A stretch of DNA of 64,000 bases from Anaerolineales bacterium. GTDB lineage: Bacteria > Chloroflexota > Anaerolineae > Anaerolineales > Villigracilaceae. The notes beneath the pieces were generated by a model, which was not told where the DNA came from, ran no database searches, and worked only from the letters and a program-made list of their open reading frames with translations. Position numbers and translations under genes: made by a program. The stretch covers positions 32,100 through 96,099 of the forward strand of contig CAKKRM010000001.1 of NCBI GenBank assembly GCA_919902735.1, given 5' to 3'. This document shows, piece by piece, positions 1 through 56,887 of the stretch; positions within the stretch are counted from its first letter, which is position 1, and each line of letters opens with the position of its first letter.

Positions 1-339
1 TTTAATGCCATTTTTTAAAGCCCAGGCAAAAGATGTCTCCATCAACTTATATCCAATCTTTTGATTTCTATAGTTTGGCAACAACCCAATTCCTAATTCT
101 CCAAAGTTCCTATCGATGTTACATTTTTCTGGAAATATACGGCACCATCCAATAACTACATCGTTTTCTTCTGCGACAAAAAGAGCATGCATTTGGCAAT
201 TCGAATTTGAAAAAGCATGAAGCCATTGATAAGTAGGAATAAAACTTTTTGCATCCATCCATTTGCTCTCGGCACACACCAAACCAATAACCATTTCAAT
301 TCTTGTTCTATCTTTTGGCGAATACAAACGACTTACCAT
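1..339 (-). CDS. GNAT-family N-acetyltransferase (C-terminal part lies beyond the window start)
   Basis: Not in the ORF track because it is open at the window edge. Hand translation of the minus strand from ATG 339..337 gives MVSRLYSPKDRTRIEMVIGLVCAESKWMDAKSF...ALFVAEENDVVIGWCRIFPEK...GELGIGLLPNYRNQKIGYKLMETSFAWALKNGIK with no stop through position 1. RNQKIGYKLM fits GNAT motif A (Q/R-x-x-G-x-G/A). The ATG overlaps the stop (335..333) of the upstream gene by 7 nt. Confidence 0.55.
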   Translation of the reverse strand, partial: MVSRLYSPKDRTRIEMVIGLVCAESKWMDAKSFIPTYQWLHAFSNSNCQMHALFVAEENDVVIGWCRIFPEKCNIDRNFGELGIGLLPNYRNQKIGYKLMETSFAWALKNGIK

Positions 340-3300
340 AAGAAATTTTCAGCAATAAGCTTCTCGAACGATCTTAGCCCCGCAGCATCAAAATAGTTAT
401 TATGGACCTCATGTGTCCCATCCAAAACCCATCCCATTTCATCAGGATTAAGTGGTCCCAAATATTTATAGATCATTTTTCGTCCTCCCAAAATATCTCT
501 AAAGTCTTTTCCATATTTCTCATTATACGCGACTGATAGTGTCCAGTTATACCCGACCACGTTCAATTGCTTCCTAACTTCATCAACATTGTCTTGCTGA
601 TTCGCCTGTTCATATTTACTAAAAGCCATTTTTCCCAGCAAAAGATATGTCTTGCCAAGCTGGACCCAAAACCAGGGTATAAGCCCTTCGGTACCTAACG
701 GAGGACGCTCTTTAGTGTACAGATATCGATCATCAATCATATCAAAAACAGTATCCACTACTTTTTGAGCTTCGTCAAAATCATTAATATAGTAGTACAT
801 CCATGCCAGGTTCACAAGCGCATCCACACCGCGATATGCAAATTCAACACCAGCACTCGTTACGGCCGACTCAAACGCATCCCTCCCTTTCGTAACAAGA
901 TCCGCCATTCGTGCCTTATCTGATTTCATTCGTCGAGCTGTCTCACGGTATACACAACCTAACTCAATATACGCCTCAGCCAATCTCATCGGTTCCTTCA
1001 CCCTGTCAGTGAAAATACCAACCGCCTCTTTCGCATACTGCTCTGCTAATTCCAGATTCTTAAGCGATTGCTCATCTGTCAGCAGATCTGCAACGTTGGT
1101 CATCCTCCGCAAGGCTTCCGCCAGCGCGTTACACGCCAGACCTATCCCGCGAGGCTGCTCCAAGTCTCGAAAAATGCCCAATGCCTGCTCACAACGAAAA
1201 CGAGCTCGCTCTGGCTGTCCATTTCGAGTTTCAATTAATCCAAATGTAGTAAGGCTCAATGCAATTGCATAACGATGTCCCAACTTGCGGCGCAAATCAA
1301 GTCCATCATCACAGTGAGACATTGCGGCTTGAAAATCACCGATTTCCGCCAATGACCAGGATAGATTGTTCAATGTGTTGGCATGCTCGGATTCAACACG
1401 AAGTTCCCGCCAAAGACGAATGTTCTTTCGATAATACTCAACAGCTTTTGCGAAATCCCCGCGGGAACGATACAAATATCCGGTTATATCCTGAGCATAA
1501 GCCATCAACAGCTTCAGCCGCCACTTATCGAACTCGGGTTCAAACTGATCGGAAAGATGATCCAGAGAGGACAGAACATCCTGCAAAATACTTTCTGCGC
1601 GTTCAAATTCCATACCGCTATAGATCAATGACCAGCTTTCCCAAACCTTCAAGCTAAGGGCAGCAAAGCTCCCCTCTTCCAACAGATCACTACACAGGTT
1701 TCGAAATTGTCCGATCTGTAACAAAGCCCTCTCATACTGTCCATTGGCAATGCTGTTCTTGATCCAGCGAACTCCAATATCTCCATCAATGTACTTTAGA
1801 GCCCCGAGTTCATTTACATCTTTTCTACGGGGTTTCGCAAATTTCAACAACTCATCCCGTAATAATAGCCAGAGATTTATGTCATTGCTTTGAAATGCTT
1901 CTTCTGCCGCCCTGGAATACTCCTGAATCCCTTTTATATAGTTTACCTGAAGGCAGTAGTATACATACTCCACTTGATAACTTTGCAACCGTGCCCGCGC
2001 TACTCGCAACTTTTGTTGTTCAGTTACCAACTGCGCCTTCTGAGCCTCGGCAATCTCCTTCAAAGAGCCTGAAGAGACAAGTCGATTTGTTGCTTTTTGT
2101 AAATCCCCGACAATACGGATCTGTTCCTTGATTTTCTCTTCGTAAAAGCGAACGATCAATTCGTAAGTCTGCTTCACGTTGTGTCTTTGCCTGCCGCTGC
2201 GATGAAGGGTTTGCATGAGACTGTACATCTCATCCTGCAGAAACACCAGGTGATCGATATCACGGATCTTGACGAAAGAAAGACGAAATTCCAGATCCCG
2301 CAGGGTATTAATATATCCTCTTGCCTGCTCAATTTCATCCTCTGTCGGTCGATCTCTCTTGAGGATCCAGGCCAGCAAATCCGCCCCCATTCCCTTCGGT
2401 GTCCATGCCAATGCTTGAATGACATCATCCAGAGGACGACGAATACCCTGAAAGCCATGAATAATAGCTTCCTTGAACTGTGTCTGTTCTCGCCGCAGCC
2501 CTATCTCAGAGTCGGCTTGTTGTTTAATAGTATCAAGCGGGGTACGGATTATTGGAAGTAGTTCCTCGGTCACAGCCAAATAATCTACAAACAAGGAAAG
2601 TAGGAATGGCTGTCCCTCGGATAGATAGTACACAACTTGCCTGATTGCTCGCGGAATTTTCTCCAACCGCTCAGCCACTTGAGGATTCTCAGTCTGTGAA
2701 ATTTCAACCACTGCATTGAAATAATCCAGTGTTTCTGGCTCTGAGAATGTCGGTAATTTTATGAGGGTGAACTTTATTTCTTTGGCTTCTTCCAGCTTGC
2801 GCAGTTCATCTTCAAGCTGGGGTGACTCTGGACGACCTGCGATCAAGACAACCGCATTAGAAATTTTGGGAAGAAAGCTCTTCACCATCCATCCTGCCAC
2901 CCCGATCGGTTCATCCGCAAGCCCTAATGCATCCTGCACTCGATCAATTTCGTACACCAAATTCTCAACAGTATCAAAGGCCAGCACAATTTTGTCATAA
3001 CTTTTCCCAATATCATTAAAGTCACTTATGAAGGCTTCAATCATTCTTGCACGCTGCTGGGTAACCGCCCGTAGGATTTGTGAAAGATCATATTTAACAT
3101 GATCCAACTCAGTATATTGTCTAACATAATTGCTGAAGTTGTCGTCGTGATGATCCAGCACTTCGACAATATCTGCAATTACTCCCTCTTCATTATGGGT
3201 ATATGTATGATACAGATCCACAAGCCGGGATGCGGAAAGGATTTTTGATGAGGACCATGCCCCTTTCTCATCAACCTTCAATTTCTTCAACACATCATCC

Positions 3301-3458
3301 AGCAGGCGAGTCTTTCCCCAGCCACCAGGAGCAGTGATATAGAACACATGCGGTTTATCCGATTTACTATTTATGGCGTCATGGATATCTTTGAGTATAT
3401 CCTCACGCCCAATCAATTCAGGAGTGGCACGAACACTGGTGTATTGTTCTATTATCAT
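333..3458 (-). CDS. STAND-type P-loop NTPase with C-terminal TPR-like repeat array, copy 1 (1041 aa)
   Basis: Walker A ITAPGGWGKTRLL near residue 45, Walker B-like KIVLAFDTVENL, then VVLIAGRP. The C-terminal ~450 aa consist of TPR-like helical repeats (AKAVEYYRKNIRLWRELR; NTLNNLSWSLAEIGDFQAAMSHCDDGLDLRRKLG; GLACNALAEALRRM). No effector domain precedes the P-loop. TGAaatATG junction with the upstream gene, and an AAGGA SD lies inside that gene. Confidence 0.85.
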   Translation of the reverse strand: MIIEQYTSVRATPELIGREDILKDIHDAINSKSDKPHVFYITAPGGWGKTRLLDDVLKKLKVDEKGAWSSSKILSASRLVDLYHTYTHNEEGVIADIVEVLDHHDDNFSNYVRQYTELDHVKYDLSQILRAVTQQRARMIEAFISDFNDIGKSYDKIVLAFDTVENLVYEIDRVQDALGLADEPIGVAGWMVKSFLPKISNAVVLIAGRPESPQLEDELRKLEEAKEIKFTLIKLPTFSEPETLDYFNAVVEISQTENPQVAERLEKIPRAIRQVVYYLSEGQPFLLSLFVDYLAVTEELLPIIRTPLDTIKQQADSEIGLRREQTQFKEAIIHGFQGIRRPLDDVIQALAWTPKGMGADLLAWILKRDRPTEDEIEQARGYINTLRDLEFRLSFVKIRDIDHLVFLQDEMYSLMQTLHRSGRQRHNVKQTYELIVRFYEEKIKEQIRIVGDLQKATNRLVSSGSLKEIAEAQKAQLVTEQQKLRVARARLQSYQVEYVYYCLQVNYIKGIQEYSRAAEEAFQSNDINLWLLLRDELLKFAKPRRKDVNELGALKYIDGDIGVRWIKNSIANGQYERALLQIGQFRNLCSDLLEEGSFAALSLKVWESWSLIYSGMEFERAESILQDVLSSLDHLSDQFEPEFDKWRLKLLMAYAQDITGYLYRSRGDFAKAVEYYRKNIRLWRELRVESEHANTLNNLSWSLAEIGDFQAAMSHCDDGLDLRRKLGHRYAIALSLTTFGLIETRNGQPERARFRCEQALGIFRDLEQPRGIGLACNALAEALRRMTNVADLLTDEQSLKNLELAEQYAKEAVGIFTDRVKEPMRLAEAYIELGCVYRETARRMKSDKARMADLVTKGRDAFESAVTSAGVEFAYRGVDALVNLAWMYYYINDFDEAQKVVDTVFDMIDDRYLYTKERPPLGTEGLIPWFWVQLGKTYLLLGKMAFSKYEQANQQDNVDEVRKQLNVVGYNWTLSVAYNEKYGKDFRDILGGRKMIYKYLGPLNPDEMGWVLDGTHEVHNNYFDAAGLRSFEKLIAENFLW

Positions 3459-4033
3459 ATTTCAGTCCTTCGCTTCACAGTCCGCAGGGTCAAATCCGGC
3501 CTGTTCCAATTTGGCTCTGTGATACGCTGCTTTATTCCGAAAGATATCCGAGTCGTATTCATCTGCCCAGCCTGTATACATTTTCATTGCAGTGCAGTGC
3601 AAGGTATGCCGCAATTCATTATCTCGAATCTGTATTTCTTGTTCAAGGGTAGTTCTGGTTTGTTCTTCAATTGCATAAGCATTCTTGCTCATGTCCCAAG
3701 CTATCAATTTTCCCGGACCGATTTGGATGTTGGTCAAAATCGAAAAGAGGGAAATACTTCGCTTCACATCCCAATTTCCACTTAAATTCTTGTGAGCTGC
3801 AAGTAAAAAAGGTACTTCATATTCCTTATCAAAATCCGGCAAGACACAAAGTGCTTCCAAAGCAGGCAACAACTCGGCAGCGAGGTTTGCTGGCAAGCCT
3901 GTGCCTGCCTTACCTATAGCTTCATAAAATTCACGGTTACAGGCCCGGATCGCATCAAGTTCAACAATTTCAGGCGGATTACCTCTGGCTTGATCTAGGA
4001 TATTCTTATTTATCCCTGGTGAGCCACCACTTA
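418..4033. repeat. 3,616-bp perfect direct repeat, copy 1
   Basis: Identical to 8058..11673 (offset 7,640). Supporting observations are identical main-frame proteins, identical shadow ORFs in other frames (e.g. 1009..1272 = 8649..8912; 3348..3785 = 10988..11425) and line-by-line spot checks. Identity begins at 418/8058; the first mismatch is at 4034/11674; similarity decays after 4065/11705. Confidence 0.9.
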
Positions 4034-4709
4034 TTTCAAAAATCTGATCTGTAAGATGTTTAGCAGCGGGGTTTTCATTTAAAACCTGAAGTTCAGTATG
4101 TTCATGATTAAATGCGCCAAGGTTTCTTATATTATCGGCTGTTGGTCGCAAATCAAAGTTTTTCCAACCAGTAACTATCGAACGACCCGTTAAGAAAAAA
4201 ATAGATTTTGGAAAATTCAACCAAAGTGCCAACATATAATCTTCCAATGCCTCCACCATATCCCTCTTAAGTATATCAACTTCATCAATCAAAAAAACAA
4301 CAGCCTTATCTCTCTGCAATGTTTCAATATTCCCTTGCAATCTACTTGCGTATTGTGCAACAGCTTCAATAGTTATATCGTCATTATCCAAAGGCTGGAC
4401 TCCTAGATGCGTATCAATCTGTAATTCGAACGCTCTAAAAACTCTTTCTACAAACATCTCAACTGGTAATGTTGCATAATCAAGAAATGAAATATTAAAT
4501 GAACAGGATGTCGGCAATTCATGGGTTAGGCAATATTCATATCTCCGCAAGAGACTAGTCTTCCCGATTGAAGCCATTCCAACAAGGTGAAATACTCGCT
4601 TACTAGCATCAATTTTTTCTGATTTTAAAACAGATAATACGAGGCTTTTTAAAAACTCAACATCTTCTTCCCGATCAATAAAACGAGGAAGTTCAAAGGG
4701 CAACATCAT
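3462..4709 (-). CDS. P-loop ATPase, 415 aa, copy 1 (mosaic paralog of 11102..12349)
   Basis: Walker A LVGMASIGKTSLL, Walker B VVFLIDEVD, FFLTGRS. The C-terminal helical half (SGGSPGINKNILDQARGNPPE...) is identical to the paralog. GGGAGG SD before ATGATG. Confidence 0.8.
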   Translation of the reverse strand: MMLPFELPRFIDREEDVEFLKSLVLSVLKSEKIDASKRVFHLVGMASIGKTSLLRRYEYCLTHELPTSCSFNISFLDYATLPVEMFVERVFRAFELQIDTHLGVQPLDNDDITIEAVAQYASRLQGNIETLQRDKAVVFLIDEVDILKRDMVEALEDYMLALWLNFPKSIFFLTGRSIVTGWKNFDLRPTADNIRNLGAFNHEHTELQVLNENPAAKHLTDQIFEISGGSPGINKNILDQARGNPPEIVELDAIRACNREFYEAIGKAGTGLPANLAAELLPALEALCVLPDFDKEYEVPFLLAAHKNLSGNWDVKRSISLFSILTNIQIGPGKLIAWDMSKNAYAIEEQTRTTLEQEIQIRDNELRHTLHCTAMKMYTGWADEYDSDIFRNKAAYHRAKLEQAGFDPADCEAKD

Positions 4710-4802
4710 CTAATACCTCCCAAAGAATAGCATTGAATTCAGTATCATTGTCATCACCTTTGATACAAGAATTTTTGGCGCCCCCTAGATTTCAATGCTA
4801 GG

Positions 4803-6128
4803 TCAGGCGTGACGCGGTTTTAGGGATCGCTCCTTGCGAATCCAATCAACTGCCGCCGCCATATCCTTGGGAGTAAGCTTCTCTTGCACTTCATTTTGAA
4901 CGTGATATACGAATAGTCTATCGACCGTCTTGATCAAATCCCTGGGGTTGGGATTACCAAGCTTTACGATCTCTTGTGCCAACACTTCCTCTGGTGACTG
5001 TTTTGCGCCACGTAAGGGAAGAGAACTGATGGCACGCAGGCTACTGTATTTACCGCCGCTTGCTTCCTGTAGACGTTGCTGAACGACTTCGCCGAGCGCA
5101 TCTGCATCCCATGTAATTGTAGTAACTTCGCTCTTAGAAGTCAATAGAAATTGGAGTTCATCTTGCATTTCAATAGGGAGAAAATATTTCGTAAATATTT
5201 TATTTTCCCGCCATTCATTGTTCTTTTCAAGCAGCCATGATATCGCTTCGACCCCTTTTTTCGCATCTTCTCCGGTCTCCACGTAGCCATCAACACCGTC
5301 AATTAGAATATAAATGGCTTCGTACCCAAGTTTTTCAAGAATAAGTCCTACAATTTTCTCAAATCGTTGCCTAGGCTCAAGCTTTGCAACGGCCGGGTTT
5401 CTGAACTTATTGAGCTGCTCTACCAATAAAATAATATCTTTTTTACTAGGCGGGTTAGGTAATAGGCCAGCGGTTTTGTCAAAAGAATCAAGCAAAGGTT
5501 TTACACTACCTTTATCAACCATTTGCTGAAGATAATCCACAGGAGAGTTGAAATCAAAAATTTGGCAAATTTCCATCAACAAATTCTTATCTTTTATTAT
5601 TGAGGTAGCATGATAAACGAGATATAGCAATAATTCCCGATCAGCAGATTTAGCGAGTCGTTTATAGTGTAAATTAAGACCCAAATTACTATTTTTAACG
5701 GATTCGGGATTAGGCAAATTATAAATAATGGGAAATATTTTCCTCCCATTCTTCCCTACTCGGCAATCCCGTGCTAGTCTTACTCGAAACGCGCTTTTTC
5801 CACTTCCAGGAGGGGCAAACACAAATGATGTAACATCTCCACTTATAGATTTATACTGGTCGTGGTCAACCAAATAGAAGGGAATAAAAGGGTCCTCGCT
5901 AGCATCCAAAGTAGCAAACGGATTTATTTTAAGTCCCACACTATTTAACCATTCTAAGGTGTTTTTATTCATATTCTTATTTGGGGTTATGACAATTGGA
6001 TTTGTGTCAGGAGCCACAACATGGGAATGTGGCGAAGACCTATAATCCGCATCCACAGCTACCTTTGCGGCTTTTATAGCATTCCATAACATGGATGTTG
6101 TTCCAGTTACAACTTCTTCAAATGACAT
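4803..6128 (-). CDS. NACHT/STAND-like P-loop NTPase, 441 aa
   Basis: Walker A FAPPGSGKSAF. Walker B of the NACHT style hhhhDGhD: IYILIDGVDGYVE. An NPF..ASEDP segment lies ~25 aa before the P-loop, shared with the proteins at 6510..7901 and 12346..14841. Confidence 0.8.
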   Translation of the reverse strand: MSFEEVVTGTTSMLWNAIKAAKVAVDADYRSSPHSHVVAPDTNPIVITPNKNMNKNTLEWLNSVGLKINPFATLDASEDPFIPFYLVDHDQYKSISGDVTSFVFAPPGSGKSAFRVRLARDCRVGKNGRKIFPIIYNLPNPESVKNSNLGLNLHYKRLAKSADRELLLYLVYHATSIIKDKNLLMEICQIFDFNSPVDYLQQMVDKGSVKPLLDSFDKTAGLLPNPPSKKDIILLVEQLNKFRNPAVAKLEPRQRFEKIVGLILEKLGYEAIYILIDGVDGYVETGEDAKKGVEAISWLLEKNNEWRENKIFTKYFLPIEMQDELQFLLTSKSEVTTITWDADALGEVVQQRLQEASGGKYSSLRAISSLPLRGAKQSPEEVLAQEIVKLGNPNPRDLIKTVDRLFVYHVQNEVQEKLTPKDMAAAVDWIRKERSLKPRHA

Positions 6129-6509
6129 AACCTCAACCTTTTATCCTTTATTACAAAACATATTTTCAAAAGGGTCACTCTTCCTGCGATGTATGCGCCA
6201 CTTGCAAAAATAAATACGAAGGAAGGGGACACCTTGATACGCAACAAGTACCCAATAAAACAGCAAAGTAATTTAAAGTAACTTCTACTTACCCAAATTG
6301 TCGTTTATTGAGACGAAAAGTTACGCAAAATATTTACTGATCATAAATACAGAATAAGAGATTCAAAAGTAAAAATAGACAACTAATTAAATCCCAACTG
6401 TCTATTGACATCTAGGAAGTCTGTCTATACTACCTATATTATTGGATAAAAAAGCAACAGTAACATGGTAAATTTCTTGTTTGAATCTAACAAAAAACTG
6501 ACAAGACCA

Positions 6510-7901
6510 TTATTGAAAAGCCTGAGTTGACAATCGTATCCCCATGTCCCTCTTGCTTGTAACAAAAACGGGCTCTTTATCTTTCGGATTTGGCTCAACT
6601 ATCTGTCGAATACGATAAATTACTGTATTGATCAGATCATCATATTCCTTGGAAAGAGTGAATTGTTCGCCAAAATCTTTAATTTTATCTTCAGGTACAG
6701 CGAATGGTACATAGGCTTTATAGTAAAGTTCTTTTTTAGTACAGTATCTACCTTGATTTTTATAAAGATAGGAAAATATTGCCCCAACTTCTGCCGAGAG
6801 CATCTTAACCGCTCCCATTCCAACCCTAATCTGGTTCGTCTCAGGATCAAATTTCAGGTTCAAAGATGAACGGCTTCTTGCGTTCTTCCATTCTGCTTTC
6901 GACAGTCTACGTGATTTCCCGCTTGATACTATATCCCAATACGTGGAGACAAGTGGGCGGAAATATTCAAGCCAGCCGCGCGGATTCGACCCTCCGCAAA
7001 CCATAAGCCAAGAGTTGACCTCTTCTGTATTATATATATCACCAATAGACACCACGTCGCCAACAGTGACTGCCAAACGACGTTCAATGATGGAAGACAA
7101 GTACTTTTCATCCCATGACAAGCGAAAAACCATTGCTCTGTCGCGAGTTATGGCAATTGCATCCGCCAATTCCGCTTCAAACTCCATAGGGAGCGCCATT
7201 TTGAATGACAGGTAGGGAATATTAAACATCTTTAGAGTCGAAAGAAGCGAACGAAGAGAATTGACTGCGCTCTTTCTCTGATTTTCAGTAACCCACTCCA
7301 CTCCATCTACCATGATCCAAACACTTGCAAAACCAATCATCTCCATAGCCTTTGTAAACTCGGTGGCAACTACCATCGGATCGAAATCATCCTCAAACAG
7401 ATCATGAGGGAAGCGCTCATTTAATTCATTAAATTGATCTTTTTCTTTTTTGGATAATGCTGATGGCAAAGTCTCAAGAAAATCCTTTTTATCTGCAAAG
7501 CGTTTTACAAACCAAACAAGATACTCCTGAGTAGCAGGAGCGGCTTTGAAGAGTAGGGATGGCTCTTTCGATAGTTTTTCGCCGAATATCCTGACGCATG
7601 AACACAATATATCCAACAGCTGATCCATTGCTAAAGAAGTACTTGGCGCCTTCACCTTTTCTGATGTTACTGGGTGCCAACGTACGATCAATCGCTTTGT
7701 ATTAGTAATGCCATATTGTTCCAGTGCAAGGCAGCTGGCGGTTTTTCCTGATCCAGGTTCGCCAAAAATAACCGTGGAATGATCTCCCTTGAGAAACTCA
7801 AAATCAGGGGGAGGTACAAACGCACGTTGGATCAACCAAGGTTCGGTCTCGGCCTTTTTTGTACTAAAAGCTGACAAACCTAGTTTTTCGATACTTGGCA
7901 T
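6510..7901 (-). CDS. NACHT/STAND-like P-loop NTPase fused to a C-terminal OmpR/PhoB-type winged-helix domain, 463 aa
   Basis: Walker A IFGEPGSGKTAS, Walker B VWIMVDGVEWV. The C-terminus (...YLYKNQGRYCTKKELYYKAY...LINTVIYRIRQIVEPNPKDKEPVFVTSKRDMGIRLS) matches the Trans_reg_C pattern (recognition helix I..LR.K.. then TVRG.GY.L-like wing). Confidence 0.8.
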   Translation of the reverse strand: MPSIEKLGLSAFSTKKAETEPWLIQRAFVPPPDFEFLKGDHSTVIFGEPGSGKTASCLALEQYGITNTKRLIVRWHPVTSEKVKAPSTSLAMDQLLDILCSCVRIFGEKLSKEPSLLFKAAPATQEYLVWFVKRFADKKDFLETLPSALSKKEKDQFNELNERFPHDLFEDDFDPMVVATEFTKAMEMIGFASVWIMVDGVEWVTENQRKSAVNSLRSLLSTLKMFNIPYLSFKMALPMEFEAELADAIAITRDRAMVFRLSWDEKYLSSIIERRLAVTVGDVVSIGDIYNTEEVNSWLMVCGGSNPRGWLEYFRPLVSTYWDIVSSGKSRRLSKAEWKNARSRSSLNLKFDPETNQIRVGMGAVKMLSAEVGAIFSYLYKNQGRYCTKKELYYKAYVPFAVPEDKIKDFGEQFTLSKEYDDLINTVIYRIRQIVEPNPKDKEPVFVTSKRDMGIRLSTQAFQ

Positions 7902-7969
7902 TGTTCCTTCACTTTTATTGATTCTAAAAGAGGCAAATCTTAGTTGAAGTCGCGTTGATTAAAAAATAA

Positions 7970-10900
7970 TTAAAACAATCCAAAGTGTTCATTTACAGAT
8001 GTCTCAAAAGTCTTTAAAGCCACTTCATTATAATAACTATTATAAGCGGAATACACACCATCCAAAACCCATCCCATTTCATCAGGATTAAGTGGTCCCA
8101 AATATTTATAGATCATTTTTCGTCCTCCCAAAATATCTCTAAAGTCTTTTCCATATTTCTCATTATACGCGACTGATAGTGTCCAGTTATACCCGACCAC
8201 GTTCAATTGCTTCCTAACTTCATCAACATTGTCTTGCTGATTCGCCTGTTCATATTTACTAAAAGCCATTTTTCCCAGCAAAAGATATGTCTTGCCAAGC
8301 TGGACCCAAAACCAGGGTATAAGCCCTTCGGTACCTAACGGAGGACGCTCTTTAGTGTACAGATATCGATCATCAATCATATCAAAAACAGTATCCACTA
8401 CTTTTTGAGCTTCGTCAAAATCATTAATATAGTAGTACATCCATGCCAGGTTCACAAGCGCATCCACACCGCGATATGCAAATTCAACACCAGCACTCGT
8501 TACGGCCGACTCAAACGCATCCCTCCCTTTCGTAACAAGATCCGCCATTCGTGCCTTATCTGATTTCATTCGTCGAGCTGTCTCACGGTATACACAACCT
8601 AACTCAATATACGCCTCAGCCAATCTCATCGGTTCCTTCACCCTGTCAGTGAAAATACCAACCGCCTCTTTCGCATACTGCTCTGCTAATTCCAGATTCT
8701 TAAGCGATTGCTCATCTGTCAGCAGATCTGCAACGTTGGTCATCCTCCGCAAGGCTTCCGCCAGCGCGTTACACGCCAGACCTATCCCGCGAGGCTGCTC
8801 CAAGTCTCGAAAAATGCCCAATGCCTGCTCACAACGAAAACGAGCTCGCTCTGGCTGTCCATTTCGAGTTTCAATTAATCCAAATGTAGTAAGGCTCAAT
8901 GCAATTGCATAACGATGTCCCAACTTGCGGCGCAAATCAAGTCCATCATCACAGTGAGACATTGCGGCTTGAAAATCACCGATTTCCGCCAATGACCAGG
9001 ATAGATTGTTCAATGTGTTGGCATGCTCGGATTCAACACGAAGTTCCCGCCAAAGACGAATGTTCTTTCGATAATACTCAACAGCTTTTGCGAAATCCCC
9101 GCGGGAACGATACAAATATCCGGTTATATCCTGAGCATAAGCCATCAACAGCTTCAGCCGCCACTTATCGAACTCGGGTTCAAACTGATCGGAAAGATGA
9201 TCCAGAGAGGACAGAACATCCTGCAAAATACTTTCTGCGCGTTCAAATTCCATACCGCTATAGATCAATGACCAGCTTTCCCAAACCTTCAAGCTAAGGG
9301 CAGCAAAGCTCCCCTCTTCCAACAGATCACTACACAGGTTTCGAAATTGTCCGATCTGTAACAAAGCCCTCTCATACTGTCCATTGGCAATGCTGTTCTT
9401 GATCCAGCGAACTCCAATATCTCCATCAATGTACTTTAGAGCCCCGAGTTCATTTACATCTTTTCTACGGGGTTTCGCAAATTTCAACAACTCATCCCGT
9501 AATAATAGCCAGAGATTTATGTCATTGCTTTGAAATGCTTCTTCTGCCGCCCTGGAATACTCCTGAATCCCTTTTATATAGTTTACCTGAAGGCAGTAGT
9601 ATACATACTCCACTTGATAACTTTGCAACCGTGCCCGCGCTACTCGCAACTTTTGTTGTTCAGTTACCAACTGCGCCTTCTGAGCCTCGGCAATCTCCTT
9701 CAAAGAGCCTGAAGAGACAAGTCGATTTGTTGCTTTTTGTAAATCCCCGACAATACGGATCTGTTCCTTGATTTTCTCTTCGTAAAAGCGAACGATCAAT
9801 TCGTAAGTCTGCTTCACGTTGTGTCTTTGCCTGCCGCTGCGATGAAGGGTTTGCATGAGACTGTACATCTCATCCTGCAGAAACACCAGGTGATCGATAT
9901 CACGGATCTTGACGAAAGAAAGACGAAATTCCAGATCCCGCAGGGTATTAATATATCCTCTTGCCTGCTCAATTTCATCCTCTGTCGGTCGATCTCTCTT
10001 GAGGATCCAGGCCAGCAAATCCGCCCCCATTCCCTTCGGTGTCCATGCCAATGCTTGAATGACATCATCCAGAGGACGACGAATACCCTGAAAGCCATGA
10101 ATAATAGCTTCCTTGAACTGTGTCTGTTCTCGCCGCAGCCCTATCTCAGAGTCGGCTTGTTGTTTAATAGTATCAAGCGGGGTACGGATTATTGGAAGTA
10201 GTTCCTCGGTCACAGCCAAATAATCTACAAACAAGGAAAGTAGGAATGGCTGTCCCTCGGATAGATAGTACACAACTTGCCTGATTGCTCGCGGAATTTT
10301 CTCCAACCGCTCAGCCACTTGAGGATTCTCAGTCTGTGAAATTTCAACCACTGCATTGAAATAATCCAGTGTTTCTGGCTCTGAGAATGTCGGTAATTTT
10401 ATGAGGGTGAACTTTATTTCTTTGGCTTCTTCCAGCTTGCGCAGTTCATCTTCAAGCTGGGGTGACTCTGGACGACCTGCGATCAAGACAACCGCATTAG
10501 AAATTTTGGGAAGAAAGCTCTTCACCATCCATCCTGCCACCCCGATCGGTTCATCCGCAAGCCCTAATGCATCCTGCACTCGATCAATTTCGTACACCAA
10601 ATTCTCAACAGTATCAAAGGCCAGCACAATTTTGTCATAACTTTTCCCAATATCATTAAAGTCACTTATGAAGGCTTCAATCATTCTTGCACGCTGCTGG
10701 GTAACCGCCCGTAGGATTTGTGAAAGATCATATTTAACATGATCCAACTCAGTATATTGTCTAACATAATTGCTGAAGTTGTCGTCGTGATGATCCAGCA
10801 CTTCGACAATATCTGCAATTACTCCCTCTTCATTATGGGTATATGTATGATACAGATCCACAAGCCGGGATGCGGAAAGGATTTTTGATGAGGACCATGC

Positions 10901-11098
10901 CCCTTTCTCATCAACCTTCAATTTCTTCAACACATCATCCAGCAGGCGAGTCTTTCCCCAGCCACCAGGAGCAGTGATATAGAACACATGCGGTTTATCC
11001 GATTTACTATTTATGGCGTCATGGATATCTTTGAGTATATCCTCACGCCCAATCAATTCAGGAGTGGCACGAACACTGGTGTATTGTTCTATTATCAT
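7970..11098 (-). CDS. STAND-type P-loop NTPase with C-terminal TPR-like repeat array, copy 2 (1042 aa)
   Basis: Identical to the 333..3458 product except for the last ~30-35 residues (…GWVLDGVYSAYNSYYNEVALKTFETSVNEHFGLF versus …GWVLDGTHEVHNNYFDAAGLRSFEKLIAENFLW). Confidence 0.85.
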   Translation of the reverse strand: MIIEQYTSVRATPELIGREDILKDIHDAINSKSDKPHVFYITAPGGWGKTRLLDDVLKKLKVDEKGAWSSSKILSASRLVDLYHTYTHNEEGVIADIVEVLDHHDDNFSNYVRQYTELDHVKYDLSQILRAVTQQRARMIEAFISDFNDIGKSYDKIVLAFDTVENLVYEIDRVQDALGLADEPIGVAGWMVKSFLPKISNAVVLIAGRPESPQLEDELRKLEEAKEIKFTLIKLPTFSEPETLDYFNAVVEISQTENPQVAERLEKIPRAIRQVVYYLSEGQPFLLSLFVDYLAVTEELLPIIRTPLDTIKQQADSEIGLRREQTQFKEAIIHGFQGIRRPLDDVIQALAWTPKGMGADLLAWILKRDRPTEDEIEQARGYINTLRDLEFRLSFVKIRDIDHLVFLQDEMYSLMQTLHRSGRQRHNVKQTYELIVRFYEEKIKEQIRIVGDLQKATNRLVSSGSLKEIAEAQKAQLVTEQQKLRVARARLQSYQVEYVYYCLQVNYIKGIQEYSRAAEEAFQSNDINLWLLLRDELLKFAKPRRKDVNELGALKYIDGDIGVRWIKNSIANGQYERALLQIGQFRNLCSDLLEEGSFAALSLKVWESWSLIYSGMEFERAESILQDVLSSLDHLSDQFEPEFDKWRLKLLMAYAQDITGYLYRSRGDFAKAVEYYRKNIRLWRELRVESEHANTLNNLSWSLAEIGDFQAAMSHCDDGLDLRRKLGHRYAIALSLTTFGLIETRNGQPERARFRCEQALGIFRDLEQPRGIGLACNALAEALRRMTNVADLLTDEQSLKNLELAEQYAKEAVGIFTDRVKEPMRLAEAYIELGCVYRETARRMKSDKARMADLVTKGRDAFESAVTSAGVEFAYRGVDALVNLAWMYYYINDFDEAQKVVDTVFDMIDDRYLYTKERPPLGTEGLIPWFWVQLGKTYLLLGKMAFSKYEQANQQDNVDEVRKQLNVVGYNWTLSVAYNEKYGKDFRDILGGRKMIYKYLGPLNPDEMGWVLDGVYSAYNSYYNEVALKTFETSVNEHFGLF

Positions 11099-11673
11099 AT
11101 TTCAGTCCTTCGCTTCACAGTCCGCAGGGTCAAATCCGGCCTGTTCCAATTTGGCTCTGTGATACGCTGCTTTATTCCGAAAGATATCCGAGTCGTATTC
11201 ATCTGCCCAGCCTGTATACATTTTCATTGCAGTGCAGTGCAAGGTATGCCGCAATTCATTATCTCGAATCTGTATTTCTTGTTCAAGGGTAGTTCTGGTT
11301 TGTTCTTCAATTGCATAAGCATTCTTGCTCATGTCCCAAGCTATCAATTTTCCCGGACCGATTTGGATGTTGGTCAAAATCGAAAAGAGGGAAATACTTC
11401 GCTTCACATCCCAATTTCCACTTAAATTCTTGTGAGCTGCAAGTAAAAAAGGTACTTCATATTCCTTATCAAAATCCGGCAAGACACAAAGTGCTTCCAA
11501 AGCAGGCAACAACTCGGCAGCGAGGTTTGCTGGCAAGCCTGTGCCTGCCTTACCTATAGCTTCATAAAATTCACGGTTACAGGCCCGGATCGCATCAAGT
11601 TCAACAATTTCAGGCGGATTACCTCTGGCTTGATCTAGGATATTCTTATTTATCCCTGGTGAGCCACCACTTA
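8058..11673. repeat. 3,616-bp perfect direct repeat, copy 2
   Basis: See 418..4033. Confidence 0.9.
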
Positions 11674-12349
11674 ATTCAAAAATCTGATCTGTAAGATGTT
11701 TAGCATTAGGTTTTTCTCTTACTACTTGAAGTTCTGTATTCTCATAATTAAATTTACTGAGATTCCTGATATTAATACCCGCCATAGGTCGCAAATCAAA
11801 GCTTCTCCAACCCGTAACAACAGAACGCCCCGTTAGTACTAAAACAATATTTGGCTGATTTATTATCGCTTCTAACAAATTGTTTTCAAGCGCATTTATC
11901 TGATCGCTTGAAAGCATATTAACTTCATCCAACAACAAAACAAGGGTTTTTTCTCTTTGAATTTGCTCAAGACCTCTCAAAACCCAACTTGAATAAATAA
12001 ATAGAGTTTGAGGTGCATTTAGGAACGGCGAACTTACAATTAACTCATTTGAAATTTTCTCGTCAATAAACCTCAGCAGTTCGGACAAAAACTTATCAAC
12101 CTCCAAATCTGCATAGCTGCTAAGGTCAATATAAACTGGGAAAAATGATTTTGATTCATCATGCGAGAGCCTATCACAGTACTTTTGCAAGAACCAACTC
12201 TTTCCAATCTGCGATCGTCCAACCATATGTATAATTCTTTGACCGCTACTTAATGCTACGCCTTTAGACACAGCGGATGCAATGCTATGTAAGGACTCAA
12301 TCTCTTCTTCGCGATCAATAAATTCTCCAGGGTTATATAACAGTCTCAT
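11102..12349 (-). CDS. P-loop ATPase, 415 aa, copy 2 (mosaic paralog of 3462..4709)
   Basis: Walker A MVGRSQIGKSWFL, Walker B LVLLLDEVN, LVLTGRS. The N-terminal ~190 aa are only about 40% identical by eye to copy 1, and the C-terminal ~225 aa are identical. ATGA start/stop overlap with 12346..14841. Confidence 0.8.
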   Translation of the reverse strand: MRLLYNPGEFIDREEEIESLHSIASAVSKGVALSSGQRIIHMVGRSQIGKSWFLQKYCDRLSHDESKSFFPVYIDLSSYADLEVDKFLSELLRFIDEKISNELIVSSPFLNAPQTLFIYSSWVLRGLEQIQREKTLVLLLDEVNMLSSDQINALENNLLEAIINQPNIVLVLTGRSVVTGWRSFDLRPMAGINIRNLSKFNYENTELQVVREKPNAKHLTDQIFELSGGSPGINKNILDQARGNPPEIVELDAIRACNREFYEAIGKAGTGLPANLAAELLPALEALCVLPDFDKEYEVPFLLAAHKNLSGNWDVKRSISLFSILTNIQIGPGKLIAWDMSKNAYAIEEQTRTTLEQEIQIRDNELRHTLHCTAMKMYTGWADEYDSDIFRNKAAYHRAKLEQAGFDPADCEAKD

Positions 12350-14841
12350 GATTTTGCTCCTGAAGTTGAAAGGGCACCCCTGGCAATTAAAGCAGCGCGG
12401 ACAATAGAAAATGCTTTCGCATCTAATTTATCAGATTCCTTCAAGCGCTCTTCTGCATAACGAATCAATGCATTTCCATATCGTATTACCTCACGTGGGG
12501 ATCCATTTGTAGCCTCTATTATTAATCCAAATGGATCATTCACTGTTCGCTTATCACACACTGCCGCAAGTTTTTCAAATCTGATTTTAATTACATCGCA
12601 AAGGCGAATATCATTCCATTCAATTTCTTCATAGTTATCTACAAGAACACTGTTTAACTCAAGCTTAAGTCCATCTGGGAGAAACACCTTTAGAAAAAAA
12701 TCAACCCTTGTTAAAGAAAAGGCAAGCTCCACTAATTCTTTTATTGCTTCAACATTATCGGGCAATAGGTATTTACTCCCTATGTCCAGGATACAATATG
12801 TACGATCAAACCCATCTGGTCTGGCCATATAAAGAAGATCCATGATTTCAGCATTATTCAAATTCCTGCTAAATGAATTAATAATTAACCCATTTAACTG
12901 GGCAAGAATTTGTTCCCAATCATCATTGGAAACATGGCCGGATCTCTTAAACGTAACGTTCAAATTCTCCACTGTCCGCGCCTGCTTTATCATAAGCCTA
13001 CCCATAGCTATTTTTTGACTGGTGTCAGCATCTAAAAATCGGCGCGGATTATCCGATACAAAATCAATCAATGAACGCGAAACCGCATCTATGATGCCAT
13101 CCCTAACATTTGGTATATGCTGGAAATTGGAATAAATCGGAAAAGCTCCATTTTCATCAAGACTGGTATTCAGGTAAGCATCCCGGCATTTTTTCACAAG
13201 ATGGTAGGCAGCAGCAGTTTTGCCCATCCCACCCTTACCAAAAACAAACACAGGTCTTGCAAACCCTATACGATTTAGAATGGGGTGATCTACAGTAACA
13301 TTTTCAAATTTCACATCCACCTCTGCAGATTCAGAACCAAATGAAGCACGCTGTGGATCACAGTTGTGAGATTTAAGCCAACTGTAAGCCTGGCGAGAGG
13401 CTTGGTTGTCTTTGCTTTGCCACAAAGATCGCCAAATTATAGGTATTGAACTTATGCGGTTCAGCCCCCTCGCGGCAGTTAGTTCATCATCTTTTATAAT
13501 GCCCCGATATTCCCAATACCTATTAATCATAACTTGTATCTTTAGTAATTTTGCATCTTTCAATAATAAATGACCATGCACACTATCATCACCCAAAACT
13601 TCCAAAATTATCGGAAAGTTTCGGGGAAGAGCAATGTATCTCTGTATGATAGGTAGCAACAGCGGTTTTACCGTTTCTCTCCAACGCACATAAGACTTTA
13701 GAACACAAGCTACTTCTTGAATGGTTATTTCCAAATTTTTTTGAGGGGGGACCATTTTTTGTAACTGGTCTAATAATTGGACATCCTCAGAAAATGAATT
13801 GCTATGGAATTTCCCGGTCAGAAAAAAAATATCTTCAATGATTAGCTTTGCTTCGACGAAGTTTTTATTCTGCCAAAGTTCAAAGATTTCTTTTGTAAGT
13901 AGCCTATGGCAACCCGCAATCTCTAACTGGGAATAAATATCAGAAAAATCGGCAAAACTTTCTTTTTGGCACCGCCCCACAAAATTACGTACAACGAGAA
14001 CCGGGTTATCTGGAAATCCTTTTAATAATTCTTCTTTATATTTCTCCCTGGCTTCATTTCTTTTTTGCTCGATATCTTTTTGTCGCTGCGATAAATAGGT
14101 CACTACACCAGAAATAACACCGGAAACCAATAAAATCATTGAGCTTTTCTGCTCTACGGCGTTATTCATGAAATCTCTTAAAGTCGCCCATAATACAGTT
14201 TCAACATTTACAATGATAATTACTGGCTTTAAAAAAAGCTCTTGAGATTTAAGTGTTATCTCTTTTTCTTCATAATAACCCAACCCTTTAATAATTCTTG
14301 AATTTACAACAATCAATTTAATAGTTTGTGGTGAGTTTGGGCTTTTTACATAAACCTTTAAAGGAATTATTCTTTGAGATGCAATTTCTGGTTCGTCATA
14401 AACTCTTAATTCATTAGGCAAAGTCAATTTTATTGATTCGGGTGGACTCACTTTACATCTAGTGGTAAACGTTATTTCCGCAGGTTTATCGTTTGCCAAA
14501 ATCAATCGAGGATATTCGATTCGCAAACATCGGCCATCCTTGGTTTCTACAACACGAGAATAATTATAATTTTCATAAGGGCTATAAAAAAAAACAATAA
14601 GCCAAATAACAGCCAATACAAACGCCGCTGCAGCAGTAGCAACCGCAATAAATCTAAAAAACCTCTCAACTCCACCAAGCCATAAATCCCCAACTGCGAC
14701 AAAAAATCTAAACGATTTCACAATAGCATTAAGCAATAACTTCCAAACATCTTTAAACCAGAAAAACCAATTAAATTTAAGTCTTCTTGGCGGCATATAA
14801 AAATGTATTTGTTTTCGTAAGCGGCTTAACATAGGAATCAA
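12346..14841 (-). CDS. Membrane-anchored P-loop NTPase, 831 aa
   Basis: Hydrophobic helices FIAVATAAAAFVLAVIWLIVFFY and SSMILLVSGVISGVVTYL bracket a ~140-aa beta-rich segment. A helical region follows, then an ASF..SAE segment, Walker A VFVFGKGGMGKTAAA and a Walker B-like TYCILDIGS. The first in-frame ATG was used as the start, so the start is uncertain. Confidence 0.75.
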   Translation of the reverse strand: MIPMLSRLRKQIHFYMPPRRLKFNWFFWFKDVWKLLLNAIVKSFRFFVAVGDLWLGGVERFFRFIAVATAAAAFVLAVIWLIVFFYSPYENYNYSRVVETKDGRCLRIEYPRLILANDKPAEITFTTRCKVSPPESIKLTLPNELRVYDEPEIASQRIIPLKVYVKSPNSPQTIKLIVVNSRIIKGLGYYEEKEITLKSQELFLKPVIIIVNVETVLWATLRDFMNNAVEQKSSMILLVSGVISGVVTYLSQRQKDIEQKRNEAREKYKEELLKGFPDNPVLVVRNFVGRCQKESFADFSDIYSQLEIAGCHRLLTKEIFELWQNKNFVEAKLIIEDIFFLTGKFHSNSFSEDVQLLDQLQKMVPPQKNLEITIQEVACVLKSYVRWRETVKPLLLPIIQRYIALPRNFPIILEVLGDDSVHGHLLLKDAKLLKIQVMINRYWEYRGIIKDDELTAARGLNRISSIPIIWRSLWQSKDNQASRQAYSWLKSHNCDPQRASFGSESAEVDVKFENVTVDHPILNRIGFARPVFVFGKGGMGKTAAAYHLVKKCRDAYLNTSLDENGAFPIYSNFQHIPNVRDGIIDAVSRSLIDFVSDNPRRFLDADTSQKIAMGRLMIKQARTVENLNVTFKRSGHVSNDDWEQILAQLNGLIINSFSRNLNNAEIMDLLYMARPDGFDRTYCILDIGSKYLLPDNVEAIKELVELAFSLTRVDFFLKVFLPDGLKLELNSVLVDNYEEIEWNDIRLCDVIKIRFEKLAAVCDKRTVNDPFGLIIEATNGSPREVIRYGNALIRYAEERLKESDKLDAKAFSIVRAALIARGALSTSGAKS

Positions 14842-15094
14842 AGCCCTCCAAAAGTAACCATGAAGTTTAATGACGGCCCAAGCTATATTCTTCCAATTAT
14901 ACCGCTCGTCTGGACTTTCATACGGTGAGGTAGCAGTACATCAGCAAACCAGCCAACTTATACTAAAGCAATTTTAGGTTTAATTTTGGTGTCAGATTCG
15001 GGACAGATTCGTTATAGTCAACAGCAAGCAAGGTGTAGGATAGCTCGCCCAGGAAACAAGTATAGTTGGGGCAGATCAAAATCACACACTACAG

Positions 15095-15480
15095 AAAAGA
15101 AAGGATATGTTGCTTATAAACAATTATAACCAAGAATAGTATCAACATCCACTCTCCCACAAAATTCGACCTAAAAGGAGCATAAGGATTGACATCAACT
15201 ACGTGTTTCTGAAAATTTGATGAGCAAGCCACCAAAAAAATCGAACAACCCATCTTCAACTTCCGTAAGGAACAAGCGTAATCGAAGCAAATCAAATTTA
15301 CGTATCAAAGAAAGGAGGTGCTGTTTATAGAATAATCAAAACCAAGAATAGTATCTGCATCCACCATTTTTAAAAATCAAATTTGGAAAGGAGAACAGGA
15401 TTGACGTCAGTTTTAGCCAACAGAATTCGATGAGCAATCCAACAATACTAAAAAATCTATTCTCAACTTTTGTGCGGACA
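15095..15480. repeat. Two imperfect tandem units of ~212 bp in the divergent intergenic region
   Basis: ACCAAGAATAGTATC at 15129 and 15341. Conserved blocks recur in the same order: CATCCAC, AAAGGAG..A..AGGATTGAC(A/G)TCA, GATGAGCAA(G/T)CCA, AAAAAATC, TCTCAACTT. Roughly 65-70% identity by eye, with small indels. Confidence 0.7.
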
Positions 15481-15499
15481 GTCATCACCTGTCCGCACA
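15471..15499. other. Perfect 11-bp-stem hairpin closing the second tandem unit
   Basis: tgtgcggacag / tcatcac / ctgtccgcaca. No clear U-run on either strand, so terminator function is not established. Confidence 0.5.
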
Positions 15500-15726
15500 A
15501 CGTTTAAATTAGAAAAGATATGATTAAAAGTCGACCAGGAAATTGCCGATCAGGAATAAAAGATTGCTGTTAGATTTTGTCAATTTACTTTTTATTATCA
15601 AGTTATGCTTACATCATATATCAACAAGACTTTTGCGGACTAAATAACAGTTTTATTAGGTTGGATTGATGCAAAATATAGATAGAAAGAAATAAATCAA
15701 ATCCAATCAAACAAAAGGAGATAAAC

Positions 15727-16386
15727 ATGTCCGTATTCAACTCAGTAGGTTCCCCCCTCGTCGTGCTAATGGTTATTCTGCTTGTTGCAGGATCAATTTT
15801 CGGCATAGCGGTCAGCGGAGCAGATTTTTTCAACCCCGCTACCAGCAATGCAGAAGCAGATCGAATAGCTGCTGAGACCAGTCATCAGCAAGCTATTTTC
15901 GAACAAACCGAGCGACTCACAAATGTACAAACAGATGCTCAAATTGAGGCGCTTCAACGCGAACAAGAAATTGCCAAACAAGAAGCACAGCTGTCTCTGA
16001 GTTATGAGCAGCAACTTAACGAAAAGAAGCTGACCGCTTACGAGAGCTTCATGCAGATTCTTAATACCCTTTTATGGGGGTTGGGAATTGCCATCAGTAC
16101 TGCAATCGTTCTTGCAACGGGGCTTATCTTAGGCCCGAAGGCACTCGTTGCGTTGCGGGTAAATAACACCCATCCACAAGCACCAGCAAAAACAAATATT
16201 CAGACTTCTCCTTTCCCAGTAGATCTTTGGAAATCTGAAGAGTTTCGAAAACGGATGGTTAAGAATGCGCGCGAGAATGAGTCTGTCATGCGCCAAGCAA
16301 TGTTCAAAAACCAAAATATACAGCCATTTTACAACCCTGCAAATATCAGTCGAGACCAGTTGAACAAGTTACCTTGGGCAGAATAA
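15727..16386 (+). CDS. Membrane protein with two TM helices flanking a Q/E-rich coiled coil, 219 aa
   Basis: AAGGAGATAAAC SD immediately before the ATG. Hydrophobic LVVLMVILLVAGSIFGIAV and LLWGLGIAISTAIVLATGLILG. Coiled-coil-like EALQREQEIAKQEAQLSLSYEQQLNEKKL. Confidence 0.7.
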   Translation: MSVFNSVGSPLVVLMVILLVAGSIFGIAVSGADFFNPATSNAEADRIAAETSHQQAIFEQTERLTNVQTDAQIEALQREQEIAKQEAQLSLSYEQQLNEKKLTAYESFMQILNTLLWGLGIAISTAIVLATGLILGPKALVALRVNNTHPQAPAKTNIQTSPFPVDLWKSEEFRKRMVKNARENESVMRQAMFKNQNIQPFYNPANISRDQLNKLPWAE

Positions 16387-16618
16387 TATGAAATTGAATT
16401 ACTTTGGTGGAGGATAGCCTGTAAAATCAGGCTATCCTCCACCAAATTTCAATTTTGGACATTGCTTTTGGTCATTCTTCGGAAAATGGTATATAATTTT
16501 CTTCGCTAAGAAATTATGATAATTTAAGGCGGATTTTCCACCTAACGCAATCAATATTTCATCTTCTGACATTATTAAAATATAAAATCTTGACTCCAGA
16601 TTTTCAAGGAGACTTAAA

Positions 16619-16846
16619 ATGTACGAGCAAATGACCACCTGTAAAAAATGTCAAAGCGCAAGGTCAACTGATCTCAAATCTCCTTGCAAGACGTGCGGCG
16701 CACACGCCACATTATTTGGTTATCTTTTTGATGATGAATTCAAAACAGCTATGTGGGCAACAATAATTGTGTCTGGTTTCATTATTTTTGCTTGCCTATC
16801 AGGTATGATTTTTCTTGCAGCACAAAGTTTTCTACTAACAAAATAA
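16619..16846 (+). CDS. Zinc-ribbon membrane protein, 75 aa
   Basis: CKKC...x12...CKTC (CxxC-CxxC) followed by the TM segment WATIIVSGFIIFACLSGMIFLAA. AAGGAGA SD. Confidence 0.6.
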   Translation: MYEQMTTCKKCQSARSTDLKSPCKTCGAHATLFGYLFDDEFKTAMWATIIVSGFIIFACLSGMIFLAAQSFLLTK

Positions 16847-16896
16847 GCCATAAAACCACAAACAGATTCCTTCACGCTAGTAATTGGAGATGAAAT

Positions 16897-17982: not shown

Positions 17983-18042
17983 TCAATAACCTTTACTCTC
18001 AATATTTCTCAAAAGATTATTCTTAGGAATGGAGAAAATGAA

Positions 18043-19026: not shown

Positions 19027-19097
19027 GGGTGGTATAGTGCAACAAATTATCTCATTTTCATCTTCGCTCTATAAAACGGATTAATAAACAAATACTC

Positions 19098-39667: not shown

Positions 39668-39678
39668 GATATAAAAAA

Positions 39679-39703
39679 ACACGGACGGGTGGTCCGTCCG
39701 TGT
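39679..39703 (-). terminator. Intrinsic-terminator-like hairpin plus T7 run (minus-strand sense)
   Basis: acacggacgg / gtggt / ccgtccgtgt. On the minus strand the hairpin is followed by TTTTTTT (39673..39679). Confidence 0.5.
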
Positions 39704-39917: not shown

Positions 39918-40011
39918 ATTGTAAGCTACAAAGAAATCAGCTTTTTCGCTTCGTTGAGAATAGTTGCTAAATAACTATTTGTTCATGGTGATATTTGGAA
40001 GGAGTAATAAC

Positions 40012-47003: not shown

Positions 47004-47032
47004 ATAATAAAAATTTTTTGGATTATTGAGCC

Positions 47033-49008: not shown

Positions 49009-49010
49009 GG

Positions 49011-51869: not shown

Positions 51870-51935
51870 AGGTGTGCATCATACGATTGATGGTGGAAGG
51901 GAGGAGAAGGTGTGTCGTCAGGTGTATCGGTTGTT

Positions 51936-56842: not shown

Positions 56843-56887
56843 CACAAAAACTTTCACTCCGTTCAAAAGGAGGTCGCAAAAAAGCTC

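Follow-up and report, generated by a model that had tools for sequence, protein, structure and literature searches.

The stretch analyzed here, called the window, comprises 64,000 nucleotides (nt) from an Anaerolineales bacterium (GenBank assembly GCA_919902735.1, contig CAKKRM010000001.1, positions 32,100 to 96,099) and carries a cluster of predicted nucleoside triphosphatase (NTPase) genes. A two-gene cassette, formed by an ATPase gene (A) and a gene for a larger NTPase with a TPR sensor region (B), occurs twice in this cluster, and the two cassettes (A1-B1 and A2-B2) share a direct repeat of 3,616 nt. The reading that we favor, with a probability of about 0.75, is that an old duplication has undergone recurrent gene conversion, and that the flawless identity of its two copies was made by a short-read assembler writing a collapsed copy twice. 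Both phenomena are known, and the window adds a new example of them.

Self-comparison of the window aligns 418..4033 (copy 1) with 8058..11673 (copy 2) at an offset of 7,640, with 0 mismatches across the 3,616 nt and no Ns in the region. This is the repeat reported by a first-pass annotation made from the letters of the sequence; a check for substitutions within it came out clean, which confirms it as a property of the assembly. Outside the repeat, the background identity at the same offset is at the random level (20-35%). A repeat scan of the 64 kb returned, as sole further direct repeat, the diverged continuation of this one, and the lack of a second long repeat excludes chance as the origin of the identity. 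Each copy contains codons 1-1013 of B (of 1041 in B1 and 1042 in B2), the 3-nt A-B spacer, and codons 226-415 (of 415) of A, in agreement with the earlier description of the tract as nearly all of the TPR-NTPase gene plus the C-terminal half of the 415-residue ATPase. The same scan found no inverted repeats of 40 nt or longer within the window. A composite transposon or a duplication mediated by an insertion sequence was rejected on that ground, and because the repeat encodes A and B only.

The two ends of the repeat differ in character. The right edge falls where the A NTPase core ends; there, a lone mismatch (T at 4034, A at 11674) is followed by 31 identical bases as far as 4065, yielding a right-hand extension of the tract at 4034..4065. 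Beyond 4065/11705, identity drops to 68-77% across A codons 177-215 and to ~50% further upstream, as the first-pass annotation had noticed. The NTPase core of A1 (codons 1-215; 4066..4709, minus strand) is old and position-specific, with ~34% amino-acid identity with that of A2 (codons 1-215; 11706..12349, minus strand). At the left end, identity breaks off abruptly at 417/8057, the third base of B codon 1014. The tails that follow, 28 codons plus stop in B1 (333..417, minus strand) and 29 codons plus stop in B2 (7970..8057, minus strand), lie outside the tract and are homologous, as had been claimed, with ~55% identity in nucleotides and 9/28 in amino acids. The B1 and B2 proteins are 98% identical, and their differences are confined to the tail.

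The duplication itself is not an artefact, since the same two-cassette order is found in L002, L007, and L013-L015. The order of genes at the window locus is F-A2-B2-E-D-A1-B1-GNAT-rSAM, with all genes from F to GNAT on the minus strand, and the two-cassette order recurs in unrelated metagenomes. Three ENA loci with MEGAHIT-style contig names (L013-L015) display it in full, as does the JGI locus L002, with a transposase after B2; L007 reads F-A2-B2-E-D-A1 up to its contig end, and L001 and L004 have the same two-cassette order as the window. Other relatives are shorter: F-A2-E-D-A1-B1 in L003, F-E-D-A-B in L010 and L011, and F-A-B-GNAT-rSAM in L009. F keeps the first position in all related loci. 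The transposase (L002 14467-15427, DDE_Tnp_4, split in two open reading frames (ORFs)) lies between B2 and E and is found in L002 only, which indicates that the B2-E junction tolerates insertions. The suggestion that the repeat is a substrate for deletion of D and E is plausible, the order of L009 being that expected of a deletion product between the repeats, and L009 may equally be the ancestral form. In sequence, the A N-half of L009 leans a little towards the A2 clade, whereas its B tail leans towards B1, a weak signal.

Evidence for conversion comes from the conflict between the two halves of A. Residues 1-175 (N-half) and 216-415 (C-half) were compared, together with the body of B. Within a class, the N-halves of the window, L002, and L013 are 46-54% (A1) or 49-58% (A2) identical, whereas A1 and A2 share 26-38%, within one genome too. 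In a neighbor-joining tree the A1 N-half of the window groups with those of L002 and L013, and the two classes form separate clades. Conversely, identity between the two copies of a genome (A C-half/B body) is 100/100% for the window, 84/92% for L002, and 64/68% for L013, as compared to 48-72% between genomes. Paralogues are more alike than orthologues in the window and L002, and about equally alike in L013. The N-half and C-half trees are incongruent, the former matching a positional grouping and the latter a within-genome grouping. Past the tract, the B tails exhibit a weak orthology by position, that of B1 in the window being closest to those of L005_B1 (77%) and L009_B (54%).

The first-pass annotation had proposed to compare the copies held by related strains: these are diverged, with 87% nucleotide identity from A codon 180 in L002 and 71.6% from A codon 177 in L013. 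Copies that are 87% identical are not made by an assembler. An N-half that follows position, combined with a C-half and B body that follow the genome, argues for an old duplication and recurrent conversion. We conclude from these comparisons that the duplication has been homogenized recurrently from the end of the A NTPase core to near the end of B, with the age of the last event varying by lineage. The initial proposal of an old duplication homogenized by conversion is therefore supported, by the N-half and C-half conflict across lineages and by the L002 copies.

The perfection of the repeat calls for another explanation, which comes from replicate assemblies. Triplicate filters from well H51 (0.2 µm; ENA PRJEB36505) were sequenced as 2x150-nt NextSeq reads, and metaSPAdes v3.13 was run on each of the three by itself (PMC8672522). 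Two of these assemblies hold the locus: L001 (Hain_H51_02um_R3, 93.5 kb, coverage 8) and L004/L006 (Hain_H51_02um_R1, 36.8 kb, coverage 8). Outside the repeat, L001 shows no difference from the window in any of the unique sequence compared, and R1 (L004) exhibits 1 difference in 26,816 nt. Inside the repeat, R1 exhibits 41 differences from the window in 3,616 nt, a ~300-fold enrichment (Fisher p = 4e-37). Taken together, the window, L001, and L004 differ at 48 sites inside the repeat, falling into five groups (2416-2466, 2526-2601, 3611, 3700, and 3798-3870). In every assembly both copies are nevertheless perfectly identical, and each difference is mirrored at +7,640.

Block a (2416..2466, mirrored at 10056-10106) comprises 7 sites in B residues 331-348 and separates the window and L004 from L001. 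Block b (2526..2601, mirrored at 10166-10241) comprises 25 sites in B residues 286-311 and separates the window from L001 and L004; its alleles share 51% identity over 2526-2574. The single site 3611 (mirrored at 11251) is G in the window and L001, and A in L004. Site 3700 and block c (3798-3870) together hold 15 sites (3700..3870, mirrored at 11340-11510) in A residues 280-337. Naming the window allele X and its alternative Y, and reading the five groups in order of position, the window is X-X-G-X-X, L001 is Y-Y-G-Y-Y, and L004 is X-Y-A-Y-Y. Sites separated by 31 identical bases or fewer are always linked, and the lone switch between neighboring groups crosses 59 identical bases. Across the blocks the alleles are 51-74% identical (26-49% differing), with 13 synonymous versus 21 non-synonymous codon changes. 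This divergence is at the level of unconverted paralogues (71.6% in L013), which argues against strain single-nucleotide polymorphisms (SNPs). The window allele of block b resembles B1-type sequences ('IRT', as in L005_B1 and L013_B1) and the L001 allele of block c resembles L002_A1 ('PVLF'), hints that are too weak for assigning alleles to copies.

By design, metaSPAdes collapses bulges aggressively into a consensus graph and passes repeats exceeding the insert (PMC5411777). A contig from an independent assembler, Logan L018 (run ERR3858132, one of the H51 read sets), equals window 4036-8087: it covers the unique middle segment and reaches exactly 30 nt (k-1) into the repeat at either end, confirming that the reads branch at both boundaries of the repeat. 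By default, metaSPAdes finishes at k = 55, and the linkage pattern, with linkage up to 31 bases and a switch across 59, is consistent with separate bubbles at this value.

Under the favored reading, the cassette A + B would have been duplicated in tandem long ago. The N-terminal NTPase core of A and, more weakly, the last ~28 residues of B would have remained position-specific and diverged, while the stretch from A codon ~177-216 to B codon 1013 would have been homogenized repeatedly by conversion between the copies. In the window lineage the last conversion would be recent, leaving nearly identical copies. As a 3.6-kb repeat is far beyond the reach of 2x150-nt libraries such as those behind R1 and R3, metaSPAdes would keep one consensus edge, masking copy differences as bulges and choosing the branch of each bubble near-randomly at 8x coverage. 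This single edge would then be walked twice along a path X-R-Y-R-Z, and both copies would be written identical. The true copies most likely differ in at least five blocks and 48 sites, with ~98.7% identity or lower as estimated from the assembled alleles; identity may be below 98.7% because bubbles resolved alike in all three assemblies would be invisible. Copies written from one collapsed edge provide no independent evidence on the genome. The assembly artefact that the first-pass annotation had held out as an alternative is thus partly right: it fits the perfect identity, given the 48 mirrored sites, and it fails for the duplication, which is real.

Several observations weigh against this reading. 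At the left boundary (417/418) the sequences have diverged too far for homologous recombination to resolve there, which fits poorly with a simple RecA-mediated conversion tract; an old junction may have come to serve again as the limit of alignable homology, or selection on the B tail may maintain the boundary. The L013 paralogues are no more alike than orthologues, so that conversion would not be continuous in every lineage. The comparison is one of contigs, and we infer from it that both alleles reside in one genome. Likewise, we infer from its near-identity to R1 and R3 that the window contig (131,420 nt) is a short-read assembly of the H51 population. Finally, the k of 55 is the default setting, and the data paper gives no k.

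Among other explanations, the least improbable is that the copies are truly identical in each cell and that the well holds at least three strains differing only in the five blocks, with both copies of each strain homogenized to a mosaic of its own. All three assemblies do have internally perfect copies, the related strain L005 is a natural mosaic of block-a alleles, and small patches of SNPs separate the sister assemblies L013 and L015. However, a short-read assembler yields identical copies whatever the truth, and at least three haplotypes, each converted into both copies, would have to turn up on replicate filters of one water sample when 26.8 kb of unique sequence shows a single SNP; we regard this as improbable. 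We give roughly half as much credit to a recent segmental duplication that placed the C-half of A1 and B1 next to A2, or the reverse, instead of conversion. It would account for a perfect or near-perfect tract, for an abrupt left boundary resembling an illegitimate junction, and for the absence of B2 in L003 and of the whole A2-B2 cassette in L010. Against it, the B2 tail past the tract is homologous but old, implying that a B gene was already present, and the two-cassette order and N-half classes are common to L002 and L013, the copies of which are 87% and 72% identical.

A wholly artefactual duplication, stemming from one A-B cassette or from a mixture of an X-R-Z and a circular Y-R molecule, is less probable again. 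Short reads cannot span the repeat, graph topology alone permits other walks, and a chimeric metaSPAdes contig (L008, described below) involves the repeat; but both unique junction pairs occur in three metaSPAdes assemblies and in the Logan contig, and the same order is found with diverged, unambiguously assembled copies in L002, L007, and L013-L015. The dense substitutions in short patches amid identical sequence also evoke programmed hypervariable regions, for example a diversity-generating retroelement or cassette switching. To this we assign hardly any weight: all four bases vary in both alleles and many changes are synonymous, which is not adenine-specific mutagenesis, no template repeat or further copy of a patch was found within the window, and no reverse transcriptase was found among the genes scanned. 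The substitution spectrum by itself rules out a target of a diversity-generating retroelement.

Concerted evolution of bacterial duplicates by gene conversion is known, for example for tufA/tufB in Salmonella and for rRNA operons. The NTPase cassettes resemble these cases in that paralogues within a genome are nearer than orthologues, flanks keep their positional orthology, and homogenization takes place in separate lineages. Unlike them, the tract runs across a gene junction, taking in half of one gene and nearly all of the next, and stops at a domain boundary, the end of the A NTPase core; moreover, the copies are in tandem, 7.6 kb apart, with two other genes between them. As to the assembly, the likeness to collapse artefacts of de Bruijn metagenome assemblers is that the repeat exceeds the insert, that variants are masked as bulges, that the contig gets past the repeat under rules based on coverage or strain paths (PMC5411777), and that replicates pick different mirrored alleles. 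Whereas collapse usually costs a copy or interrupts the contig, the loop topology would here have allowed both copies to be written, so that their identity falsely looks perfect.

Two messages follow. A perfect long repeat in a short-read metagenome contig is not evidence of very recent recombination, since the assembler can write one consensus copy twice, and comparing replicate assemblies reveals such a collapse even without reads. In addition, the locus offers a clean natural case in which the concerted evolution of tandem NOD/STAND-type NTPases respects a domain boundary. Position fixes the NTPase core of A, while the other half of A, with lid and winged helix, can be exchanged together with the entire TPR sensor of B.

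A more tentative and rather doubtful idea is that the five blocks are real copy differences shielded from conversion by selection. The residues concerned are ~291-304 and 337 in A, and ~295-311 and 334-348 in B. If copy-specific, the blocks would mark residues distinguishing both cassettes; they could match each A ATPase to the B sensor of the same cassette, or set the specificity of a cassette, while conversion keeps the remainder of both cassettes identical. The locus would then be a bacterial counterpart, in a rare and uncharacterized multi-NTPase system, of plant NLR clusters. In these NB-ARC resistance-gene clusters, sequence is exchanged among tandem paralogues. The likeness is that sequence passes between tandem STAND/NOD-type NTPase paralogues except in short patches, which remain diverged, and that the fold of A matches the NB-ARC modules of ZAR1 and NRC2/4, and also Avs3. 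The differences are that the locus is bacterial, that A has no sensor repeats of its own, and that the copy-specificity of the patches is putative.

Two of the variable positions fall on conserved residues of A. The window allele encodes Pro291 (codon at window 3838) and Ala337 (codon at window 3700), while the L001 allele agrees with the family at both: nearly all of the 21 aligned family members have Gln291 (CVLQDFD), and the majority have Asp337 (KLIDWD). Elsewhere in the family, L013 and L015 differ by five SNPs in 64 nt of gene D (locus 9487-9550) between otherwise identical sister assemblies, their remaining SNP clusters being at contig ends. Small patches of microdiversity are thus also present in unique genes of the family.

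The cluster begins with F (12346..14841, minus strand), which encodes 831 residues with an Sll1717-like P-loop domain in the C-terminal half. The start of A2 (11102..12349, minus strand, 415 residues) overlaps the F stop by 4 nt; A2 is an Orc1/Cdc6-like ATPase of N-terminal class A2, and is followed by B2 (7970..11098, minus strand), a putative STAND/TPR NTPase of 1042 residues. E (6510..7901, minus strand, 463 residues) and D (4803..6128, minus strand, 441 residues) occupy the unique middle segment and encode P-loop ATPases of the same superfamily, D being related to Sll1717/DS41_1. A1 (3462..4709, minus strand, 415 residues) is an Orc1/Cdc6-like or NOD-like P-loop ATPase of class A1, and B1 (333..3458, minus strand, 1041 residues) is a putative STAND-type NTPase with an AAA_16-like N-terminus and a TPR sensor region. 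The B1 stop is overlapped by 7 nt by a GNAT acetyltransferase gene (Pfam Acetyltransf_1), of which the 5' part (1..339, minus strand) lies in the window before the gene runs off its edge.

Past this left edge, the 3' side of B1 is seen in L001 (14371-19474): it encodes the GNAT, a radical SAM/SPASM enzyme (rSAM), and an 871-residue DUF4062-NB-ARC-TPR STAND protein. The radical SAM/SPASM enzyme resembles maturases of ribosomally synthesized and post-translationally modified peptides (PapB-like, 148 bits, sub-cut-off). The GNAT-rSAM pair is conserved in L003, L005, L009, and L013.

Against Pfam, A2 passes ATPase_2 (PF01637; 41.1 bits, cut-off 33.2), whereas A1 has no match to PF01637 and passes AAA_22 only (28.8 bits, cut-off 27). 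The AlphaFold2 model of A, built on A2 (pLDDT 87), displays a P-loop core at ~35-196, a helical lid from 202, a winged helix, and C-terminal helices. Its best fold matches are archaeal Orc1/Cdc6 and SSO1545 (PDB IDs 2qby, 1fnn, 2fna), followed by the plant and Avs3 modules named above, with template modeling (TM) scores of 0.43-0.51 overall; a profile search of A against PDB sequences returned only P-loop noise (E > 0.01). B1 matches TPR_12 with 61 bits (cut-off 30.1), and TPR_12, TPR_10, TPR_8, TPR_2, and TPR_1 all exceed their cut-offs in B. The B N-terminus stays below threshold for AAA_16 (27.7 versus 32.6 bits) and nSTAND_NTPase5 (17.5 versus 34 bits).

D, E, and the C-terminal half of F align along nearly the whole of the NCBIfam profiles NF047389 and NF053860, the curated cut-offs of which are 75 and 370 bits, respectively. 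All scores are sub-cut-off: 107.5 (NF053860) and 61.3 bits (NF047389) for D, 74.6 and 57.7 bits for E, and 28 and 33.5 bits for F; D is weakly related to E. By these profile alignments, D, E, and F are homologous to Sll1717-family ATPases and to the DS41_1 anti-phage protein, and are not members of these families. DS-41 has been validated as a defence system (PMC13092281). The likeness to it resides in this homology; a putative difference is that the present locus unites five to seven NTPases, a GNAT, and a radical SAM/SPASM enzyme. A PADLOC search recognized no known defence system and returned only a generic TPR match and a weak PDC-S27 match. By homology, the cluster is a multi-NTPase system, with a probable role in conflict or defence.

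The A family is rare, with 37 matches among 5.8 billion proteins. No relative of A was found among the GTDB species representatives, with a single protein or a 21-sequence profile, nor in IMG/VR, and exact-sequence look-ups of A1 and A2 returned no record. Megablast of window 1-16000 and 44000-64000 against E. coli genomes and PLSDB plasmids gave no match. The JGI metagenome scan returned L007 and L008 only. L008 (Hain H51 0.1 µm R1) is a metaSPAdes chimera of low coverage that started from the repeat: its positions 1-3924 connect 71 nt of repeat (window 3733-3663, one mismatch) with unrelated genes, which include an aminopeptidase-like ORF and membrane proteins.

The first half of the window (1-32000) has a GC content of 34-45%, versus ~51% in the rest, placing the NTPase cluster on an island of foreign composition. 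A second low-GC insert (39964-43890, 36-37%) encodes a 1308-residue KAP-family P-loop NTPase. The backbone segments (35463-39682, 43986-47003, 47560-51364, and 56888-59275) encode a type IV coupling protein, a VirB4-like ATPase, a short DnaE (1005 residues), TadA/CpaE/CpaB-like pilus genes, a primase-like protein, and DnaN, and by these gene assignments look like a large plasmid or an integrative conjugative element. Scans of the window for tRNAs and Rfam families gave no matches.

Next to F, a divergent gene set on the plus strand (15727-22286) encodes proteins of 219, 361 (SH3_3), 327, and 1062 residues. This set accompanies F-A-B-E-D in distant relatives (L002 377-6884, L003 242-6573, and L010 1-3719), where it also contains a 75-residue ORF; apart from SH3_3, it has no family matches. 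Its retention in distant relatives suggests that the conserved unit may exceed the NTPase operon. Further along the same low-GC island lie a gene for a 575-residue protein with an N-terminal SUKH/SMI1-KNR4 domain, of the immunity-protein type (23381-25108), and one for an 1823-residue HrpA-like DEAH helicase with S1 and DUF4397 domains (26402-31873).

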